A stretch of 48,363 nucleotides of DNA from an uncultured Gammaproteobacteria bacterium (GCA_964536885.1 CAZHYP010000001.1:1-48363); one strand, 5' to 3'; shown: positions 47,101-48,071, counted from the stretch's first letter. Program-made: numbers and translations. The notes: generated by a model from the sequence alone, not told the origin.

Positions 47101-47235
47101 ATTTTTAGCTTCTCTCTCTGGGCTCGTGCTATCAAAAGCTAAATCTGGACCAAAGCCGATTTCGTAACCAAGTTCGTTTAGCCAATCTAAGGTTGCTTGT
47201 TCAAGTGTTGATTCGTTGTATTTATTATTCATCAT
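44149..47235 (-). CDS. hsdR: Type I restriction enzyme R subunit (HsdR-like helicase-nuclease)
   Basis: The HsdR N-terminus reads [17 protein letters not shown]. Walker A is GSGKSLTM. The DEAH box is ADEAHRSQ. Length is 1028 aa. Confidence 0.9.
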
Positions 47236-48071
47236 ACTGTTTTTGATAATTGATCAATGGTTGCTTGTAATACCTGCCAACAAATTTTAGCAGTGTGTTC
47301 GTCGGGATTAAAATTAGACGACATTTGTTGATATGGGTGAATATAATTTCTAAAATCTCTTAAAGCGTGACTAAATTTTTTTACATCTTCACCAATTAAA
47401 TTTAAATCACGAGCAACATTTATAAAATCATTCAAACTCCAATCATAAAATTGTTTTACTTTACCAATTTTATCTTTTGGGGCAGAAACTGATTTATTAA
47501 AATCAGTAGCTTTATTACTTGCCACTCCAAGTAAAATACCTTCCAATACACTGCCACACAAAAAAATTACAGAAAGAGAAACTTTAGCATTTAAGCACTT
47601 ATTAATTTCACCCAATCTCTGTTTTAATATAGATGAAATAACATTGGTTAAACCTAATTTATCAACATCTATATCTTTAAATTCTTTATCTAAAAAATCG
47701 TCTTCCTTTACTTCGGTTATACTATTTTTTATACCATTTAATTTATTAGATATTTCTTTTCCTTTATTTATTAAATCGATCGAAAAATCTTTTTTCTCAA
47801 GACGATCTAATAAAATCTGATTTTCAATATACTCAATAATTTTAACAATAGATTTACCAACCAAATGATCATCTGCTTCTTGCCAAAAACCTCTAACTCT
47901 ATTTGCCTTTGACCCGCTGCCATAATTAAATTTTTCATCATAAATATTTATTCCAACATCATCAAAGAAAAATTCACCTATTGTGCGGTCTGAAAAGTTC
48001 AAAACATATCCACCACCCATTTGAAATAATTTTTCTAATACTTGTTTTTCATTTGTAGTTAAACTAGACAT
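47232..48071 (-). CDS. Hypothetical protein with a HEPN-like C-terminal motif
   Basis: ATGA overlap with hsdR. The C-terminal region contains [13 protein letters not shown]. Confidence 0.7.

Follow-up and report, generated by a model that had tools for sequence, protein, structure and literature searches.

Several described bacterial defence systems are built around a DUF4145 domain, and in one of these, RAZR, the RNase activity of DUF4145 was found to depend on its R and H residues and to be needed for defence (PMC13017515). Two further single-gene systems that bear DUF4145, BxaP and Ishtar1, are described as conferring defence (PMC10799925 and bioRxiv 10.64898/2026.07.06.735840, respectively). 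An earlier computational study catalogued HEPN genes in restriction-modification (R-M) operons, listed DUF4145 itself as 'in operon with R-M', and described AbiJ-NTD1, a mostly helical, N-terminal domain associated with abortive infection (Abi) that forms fusions with HEPN domains of the AbiJ, DUF4145 and Ymh families (Anantharaman et al. 2013, PMC3710099). Moreover, type I R-M operons frequently harbour embedded genes, which often have a role in defence (bioRxiv 10.1101/2024.01.29.577857; TgvAB, PMC11411939). Here we describe an open reading frame (ORF) of 279 amino acids (aa) that adjoins hsdR in a stretch of 48,363 nucleotides (nt), hereafter the window, from an uncultured Gammaproteobacteria bacterium (GCA_964536885.1, CAZHYP010000001.1:1-48363). 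The ORF is an uncharacterised HEPN/DUF4145 Abi-like module of an architecture already noted computationally in 2013, and our analyses of its sequence, predicted structure and genomic setting make it reasonably probable that it is a self-contained, single-gene effector of abortive-infection type, that is, a latent HEPN RNase carried as cargo in a type I R-M operon.

Domain layout and the C-terminal domain

Comparison with its relatives shows that the predicted ORF product consists of two domains that can occur apart and that a variable linker connects, with the following layout in window coordinates (pLDDT, predicted local distance difference test):

47232-48071, minus strand: the 279-aa, two-domain, Abi-like ORF, with its ATG at 48071 and its TGA stop at 47232-47234.
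47739-48071, minus strand: N-terminal domain, aa 1-111, with helices at aa 6-15, 28-39, 55-65, 68-87 and 98-111 and the motif SKANRxRxFW.
47652-47738, minus strand: variable linker, aa 112-140, the least conserved segment, with pLDDT below 50 at aa 116-120.
47235-47651, minus strand: C-terminal all-alpha domain, aa 141-279, DUF4145-like (HEPN), with a borderline match to Pfam DUF4145 on aa 155-246.
47334-47360, minus strand: putative catalytic motif R238-D-F-R241-N242-Y-I-H245-P246, recognised by its conservation in the 144 cluster representatives described below.

Mean pairwise identity is 0.22 in the linker, 0.32 in the N-terminal domain and 0.43 in the C-terminal domain, and both domains are found with other partners. 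The C-terminal domain occurs behind TPR repeats (P0208) and behind other N-termini (P0210, P0218 and P0240), and forms the N-terminal part of a 509-aa protein (P0221), while the N-terminal domain is joined to an unrelated C-terminus in P0259 and to Abi_C in P0278. A first AlphaFold model was of low confidence exactly at the motif, and for this reason a deeper alignment of 128 sequences (A3) was built, which raised the mean pLDDT to 88.9 in a second model (AF2). This second model predicts a helical N-terminal domain, a poorly ordered linker and an all-alpha C-terminal domain whose long helices span aa 143-161, 165-186, 213-222 and 258-278.

The sole Pfam family matched by the ORF product is DUF4145 (PF13643), which is a HEPN family. 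Two close homologues score above the cut-off of the model (P0054 with 24.6 bits and P0115 with 26.2 bits), and the match is found in 25 of 25 close homologues (A1) and in 17 of 25 distant ones at about 30% identity (A2). Overall 42 of the 50 homologues match on the same region, with E values down to 8.7e-6, and in every case where its extent was given the match runs from aa 155 to 246, against roughly positions 2-71 of the DUF4145 model. The predicted relation to DUF4145 is real but marginal, and we consider the C-terminal domain probably to be of HEPN/DUF4145 type. Six of the eight weak, domain-sized Foldseek matches to the second model are HEPN structures, namely the sacsin HEPN domain, HepT (7bxo_H and 6m6u_D), an AMPylated HEPN toxin (two chains of 8xdj) and TM0613; the first model matched TT1696 with a TMt of 0.61, the weak domain-sized matches as a whole spanning TMt 0.35-0.61.

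A first-pass annotation of this DNA had pointed out an R-x(3-6)-H signature in the helical C-terminal part and likened it to the catalytic motif of HEPN RNases. The signature is indeed there; by itself it is not beyond chance, at least one copy arising in 36% of shuffles of the ORF protein, and it carries weight because it is near-invariant across the family and not because it is improbable. Conservation was counted in 144 representatives of 50%-identity clusters, in which the key residues are kept as follows:

E177: 144 of 144 representatives.
R241: 144 of 144 representatives.
R152: 143 of 144 representatives.
N242: 143 of 144 representatives.
H245: 143 of 144 representatives.
R238: 138 of 144 representatives, with K or Q in the other six.

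The canonical HEPN motif is Rx4-6H with a polar residue after the R, and lies near the last core helix. R238 and H245 form an R-x6-H with D after R238. A conserved motif is present, though the spacing of the invariant Arg is atypical, within a stretch of aa 237-249 (R238 at 47358-47360, R241 at 47349-47351 and H245 at 47337-47339). The proposal of a HEPN-like C-terminal domain is supported by DUF4145 matches that are borderline but consistent, together with the near-invariant R, N and H residues.

The N-terminal domain

The N-terminal half had been called unfamiliar in the first-pass annotation, and we find that it is not an orphan. No Pfam model matches it, and this includes the models that we take to be AbiJ_NTD3, 4 and 5. 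A tblastn search of plasmids returned about 80 records, mostly matching aa 1-85 or 1-111 only, that are annotated 'abortive infection family protein', and the two plasmid proteins examined from among them, both of about 272 aa, combine the same N-terminal domain with Pfam Abi_C (E about 1e-13). BLASTP aligns aa 1-85 with the N-terminal end of the AbiJ-like protein WP_224994956.1 at 49% identity (E 7e-24), and that protein itself matches Abi_C with an E value of 2.7e-13. Judged by sequence, then, it is the N-terminal module of AbiJ-like (Abi_C) abortive-infection proteins. Considering that one N-terminal domain is found on both Abi_C and DUF4145-like effectors, the ORF represents a swappable, two-domain, Abi-style single-gene module; in terms of predicted architecture, two HEPN families have in effect exchanged effectors on a common N-terminal module. 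An hhalign comparison of the C-terminal domain with a three-sequence Abi_C alignment found no relation, the profile being too shallow to be informative. From the published fusion partners of AbiJ-NTD1 (AbiJ and DUF4145) we infer that the N-terminal domain is of this type rather than NTD2 or DpnII/MboI-NTD.

Small unannotated genes lie before or after the plasmid AbiJ-like relatives (L087, 2917-3993; L088, 4803-5210). On pB13-200A a small Rap1a/Tai-family immunity-like gene overlaps the 3' end of the Abi gene and may be a modulator.

Genomic setting and alternative explanations

In the explanation that we favour, which is modelled on RAZR and other defence RNases of the HEPN type, the C-terminal domain would act as a metal-independent endoribonuclease, with an active site that is put together when the protein dimerises or oligomerises. 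By the same analogy the N-terminal domain would hold it inactive, either directly or as an intermediary, until an infection cue sensed by the N-terminal domain switches it on, whereupon cellular RNA (tRNA, rRNA or mRNA) would be cleaved and growth arrested. The position of the gene in the operon would serve co-expression with R-M and Shedu as layered defence, and implies no physical link to the HsdR motor. The immediate neighbours of the ORF in the window are these:

48080-48363, minus strand: 3' end of sduA, of which the final 93 codons fall within the window (PADLOC SduA, E 1.9e-6).
48072-48079, minus strand: T8 spacer (A8 on the plus strand) of exactly 8 nt that separates the stop codon of sduA from the ATG of the ORF.
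47232-47235, minus strand: ATGA overlap of the ORF TGA stop with the hsdR ATG start, read from the sequence.
44149-47235, minus strand: hsdR, complete, 1028 aa, with Pfam HSDR_N, SWI2_SNF2, ResIII, T1R_D3-like and T1RH-like_C (E down to 1e-124).

The 279-aa ORF, its ATGA overlap with hsdR, the 8-nt A8 gap and hsdR itself had all been reported before and each holds in the sequence, hsdR being complete with five Pfam domains. The partial upstream ORF, formerly described as nuclease-like, is by its sequence match the C-terminus of a Shedu SduA/DUF4263 nuclease, and ends in a TAA stop at 48080-48082. A full-length SduA of 367 aa with a match to SduA_C (E 5e-14) is encoded in L001, a metagenomic contig that is identical to the window over the ORF, and L096 also has the full 367-aa gene. 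In L001 and in L096, whose copy of the ORF is 96% identical, the operon runs in the order HTH/M78 genes, hsdM, DUF2321, a 164-aa gene, hsdS, sduA, the ORF and hsdR, and the ATGA overlap with hsdR recurs in L096. No terminator-like site was found on the coding (minus) strand from sduA through the ORF to hsdR, in AT-rich DNA that makes a promoter/terminator scan uninformative; the ORF is apparently co-transcribed with the type I R-M operon.

To place the window among its relatives, genomic context was counted in the 80 best species-level loci. The recurrent neighbours are HsdS (32 loci), HsdM (24) and HsdR (24), with no others, and the homologue is embedded in type I R-M genes in 36 of the 80 loci (about 45%); where at least 5 kb is available on both sides, the homologue is flanked on its own strand by hsdM/S upstream and by hsdR downstream in 20 of 47 loci. 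The typical embedded order is hsdM-hsdS-X-(other cargo)-hsdR, in which the homologue usually starts 0-40 nt past hsdS, and in most cases 0.7-3.8 kb of unrelated cargo separates it from hsdR, which comes immediately after it in a few loci. These observations bear on an alternative modelled on PrrC and Ronin, in which the Hsd complex (HsdMS or HsdR) would hold the protein inactive and the RNase would be freed once restriction has been disabled by a Stp-, Ocr- or ArdA-like anti-restriction factor of a phage. Suicide modules that guard R-M have a precedent in PrrC and Ronin (bioRxiv 10.1101/2023.04.06.535777), and the slot after hsdS and before hsdR that the ORF shares with prrC in the window and in about 45% of the loci, its ATGA overlap with hsdR, and the finding that relatives with the same N-terminal domain and Abi_C directly follow a type II R-M system, a type ISP R-M system or a large DNA methyltransferase in three of the five plasmids inspected, all fit such a guard. 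However, type I R-M genes are absent within 10 kb of the homologue in more than half of the loci. Copies of near-identical length and 65-72% identity stand beside an integrase in an integrative element (L003), downstream of HTH_17 and beside Fic in a Patescibacterium (L005), and between housekeeping genes (L093), and another lies in a Kiwa/CBASS/TIR island (L092). Where embedding does occur it involves two HsdR lineages (48-70% and 32-36% identical to the window HsdR) and a variable gene order, including hsdM-ORF-hsdS in two metagenome-assembled genomes, from Elusimicrobia (L017, 10001-10837) and WOR-3 (L019, 10001-10828), with a long hsdM-like gene of 682-696 aa. The ATGA coupling belongs to the window's own lineage only (L001 and L096), and is not kept in other R-M-embedded loci. 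PrrC, by contrast, is hardly ever found other than embedded in type I R-M systems (bioRxiv 10.1101/2024.01.29.577857). Because the association with R-M is not obligate, a PrrC-like guard, which may apply to embedded copies, is less likely as a general mechanism, and overall we think it unlikely.

The first-pass annotation had gone further and proposed a PrrC-like RNase effector tied to the HsdR motor. The HEPN-like domain and the prrC slot are supported; the tie to HsdR is not, given embedding in only 36 of 80 loci, the intervening cargo, the two HsdR lineages, the hsdM-ORF-hsdS order and the solitary copies. A functional unit with HsdR was rejected, the association being frequent yet not obligate. 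Across the 80 loci we found no conserved partner or antitoxin, and SduA adjoins the ORF only in the window's lineage. A toxin-antitoxin pair of HepT/MNT type was likewise rejected, there being no adjacent nucleotidyltransferase gene.

Several individual loci carry additional genes around the homologue. A gene of 158-182 aa with a weak Pfam DUF6998 match lies directly upstream in several non-R-M copies (L089, 6555-7031; L092, 6448-6996), with a 4-nt gap to the homologue in L092 and an overlap of about 30 nt in L089, and in P0070 (445 aa) the DUF6998-like gene and the homologue seem to be fused or read through as one; the DUF6998-like gene may be a subfamily-specific partner. In L097 (9371-10834), a 75% identical relative, a solo 208-aa Abi_C gene (AbiJ-type HEPN) lies directly upstream of the homologue between hsdS and hsdR, so that a single type I R-M operon holds a tandem pair of different HEPN genes. 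Extra genes are also found between hsdM and hsdS in L096 (3376-4209), L097 (5660-8087) and L090 (4130-5095 and 6298-8543), among them DUF2321, DUF3800 and several without a Pfam match, and suggest that the whole operon acts as a multi-slot cargo carrier.

The family is large and widely spread. Homologues of the ORF give at least 5349 matches at E<=1e-3 among 90%-identity clusters, and fall into 3971 clusters at 50% identity, 341 of which score below 1e-30. Two more homology searches, aimed at diverse sequences, brought up only 4 and 10 matches. A scan of one genome per species places the family in at least 497 genomes, as a lower bound, with hosts that include Patescibacteria, Acidobacteriota, Pseudomonadota, Bacteroidota, Chloroflexota, Spirochaetota, Desulfobacterota, Micrarchaeota and Methanoperedens. 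The best 120 homologues are all 64-96% identical over the full length, and all named ones are annotated 'hypothetical protein'; NCBIfam and PHROGs gave no meaningful match to the ORF, and a phage genome collection searched with it gave none. Homologues from different phyla are about 63-75% identical, and identities of 63-73% between phyla point to horizontal spread under strong constraint.

A number of these results weigh against a latent HEPN RNase of the abortive-infection type. Identity of 65-75% across phyla is unusual for a defence sensor that would be expected to track fast-evolving phage proteins, and the PADLOC library, which we take to include PD-T7-4, has no match to the ORF. The ORF product itself scores only 21.5 bits against DUF4145 (E 2.4e-4), under the gathering score of 23.1, and the plurality consensus of the diverse family (A4) reaches merely 13.5 bits. 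The invariant R241 and H245 are spaced R-x3-H, one residue short of the canonical range, and R238, which lies within that range, is replaced by K or Q in six of the 144 representatives. Foldseek searches of both models against the PDB, and of the better model against BFVD, gave no match at E<=1e-3, and sequence and profile searches of the PDB with narrow (A1) and broad (A4) alignments gave chance matches only. With regard to the fold suggested by the first-pass annotation, the structure searches therefore brought up no non-HEPN fold and no significant HEPN match either.

The spacing of the R-H pair and the very high cross-phylum conservation would also suit a helical protein with no catalytic or defence role, that is, a HEPN-like or KNTase_C-like module that binds nucleotide, RNA or protein through its R, N and H residues and regulates the mobile-element genes nearby or acts as their adaptor. 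Within the HEPN clan some domains are known to bind without catalysis (PMC3710099), and here a supposedly toxic RNase is encoded without an antitoxin or partner gene. We nevertheless hold this to be improbable, considering that the RN...H signature and an invariant acidic residue are typical of catalytic HEPN domains, that the contexts are overwhelmingly defence or mobile-element regions, that the same N-terminal domain is paired with another catalytic-type HEPN family (Abi_C, with RNxxxxxH), and that single-gene DUF4145 systems without an antitoxin work in defence (RAZR and, as described, BxaP). A more speculative idea, to which we give little credence, is that the shared N-terminal domain is a general 'R-M guard' adaptor that senses the state of type I, II or ISP complexes, or a universal anti-restriction cue (e.g. 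DNA-mimic proteins), and signals to interchangeable HEPN RNases, whether DUF4145-like or Abi_C; a ligand that is conserved and cellular, and not a variable phage protein, would account for the high conservation across phyla. Finally, it is very unlikely that the DUF4145 matches are noise from helical composition and the C-terminal domain a new fold or an enzyme of different chemistry. In favour of this are the sub-threshold or borderline scores, with the consensus below individual members, the absence of significant structural neighbours of the confident second model, and the hhalign comparison with Abi_C, which found nothing. Against it, the same Pfam family is recovered independently and in the same register in those 42 of 50 members, the weak domain-sized structural matches are mainly to HEPN structures, and the motif sits where the match to the DUF4145 model ends.

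Further genes follow hsdR in the window. A 64-aa ORF with two predicted hydrophobic helices (43953-44147, minus strand) starts 1 nt past the hsdR stop, and beyond it (42471-43879, minus strand) lie a 52-aa ORF, a 250-aa membrane-anchored NERD protein (Pfam NERD, E 3.5e-11) and a 178-aa protein with multiple transmembrane segments. Together these four ORFs form an islet of 25% GC, compared with about 35% elsewhere in the window, and may be further defence cargo added to the operon; a small transmembrane protein adjoining hsd genes recalls RonA of Ronin by position. The remainder of the window is ordinary chromosome of about 35% GC that encodes RNase P RNA, GlmS, a P-type ATPase, an SPFH protein and an S49 peptidase. 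The RNase P RNA is of bacterial class A (1265-1626, minus strand; Rfam RF00010, 230.6 bits), and its presence marks the window as chromosomal DNA of a bacterium.

Comparison with known systems

If the ORF does encode a latent HEPN RNase of the abortive-infection type, this would give a name and a mechanism to a very large family whose source annotations, as far as encountered, read 'hypothetical protein' and which extends over at least 5349 clusters at 90% identity, at least 497 species, many bacterial phyla and two archaeal lineages. The modules known from within type I R-M operons would gain one more HEPN RNase encoded by a single gene, and an N-terminal domain common to two families of HEPN effectors would lend itself well to asking what Abi N-terminal domains sense. 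Current concepts would stay as they are, since HEPN/DUF4145 genes in R-M operons, and defence genes within defence operons, have already been described.

Similar to the DUF4145 proteins RAZR (PD-T7-4), BxaP and Ishtar1, the ORF product matches the DUF4145 model, has a conserved Arg...His pair and a predicted all-alpha fold, and is encoded by a single gene that combines an accessory domain with a HEPN domain and is associated with R-M genes and defence islands. It differs from RAZR in having no zinc ribbon and in the spacing of its pair (R-x3-H, or R-x6-H counted from R238, versus R146...H154 in RAZR), from BxaP in having no HEAT-like domain, and from Ishtar in having no beta-rich C-terminal domain; unlike all three, its HEPN domain is C-terminal to an AbiJ-type N-terminal domain and its DUF4145 scores are borderline only. 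With PrrC and RloC it shares a HEPN-superfamily effector placed between hsdS and hsdR and a presumed backup suicide function, but it is much smaller than these proteins, occurs outside R-M operons as well and resembles neither of them in sequence, and no ABC-ATPase/NTPase domain was found in it by Pfam, NCBIfam and PADLOC scans. HepT/MntA differs in turn by its minimal nucleotidyltransferase antitoxin, no gene of which kind is a conserved neighbour across the 80 loci. The likeness to AbiJ-like proteins (Abi_C, PF14355) extends over the common N-terminal domain (49% identity over 85 aa), a length of about 270-280 aa, the two-domain layout and a frequent position beside R-M genes and on mobile elements, whereas the effector is DUF4145-like with RNYIH in place of Abi_C with RNNxSLAH, with no profile similarity detected between the two using the shallow Abi_C profile. 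Both sides of this resemblance come together in the AbiJ-NTD1 plus DUF4145 architecture (PMC3710099), whose fusion partners and R-M contexts fit the ORF, with its N-terminal domain provisionally assigned to NTD1 from those partners.
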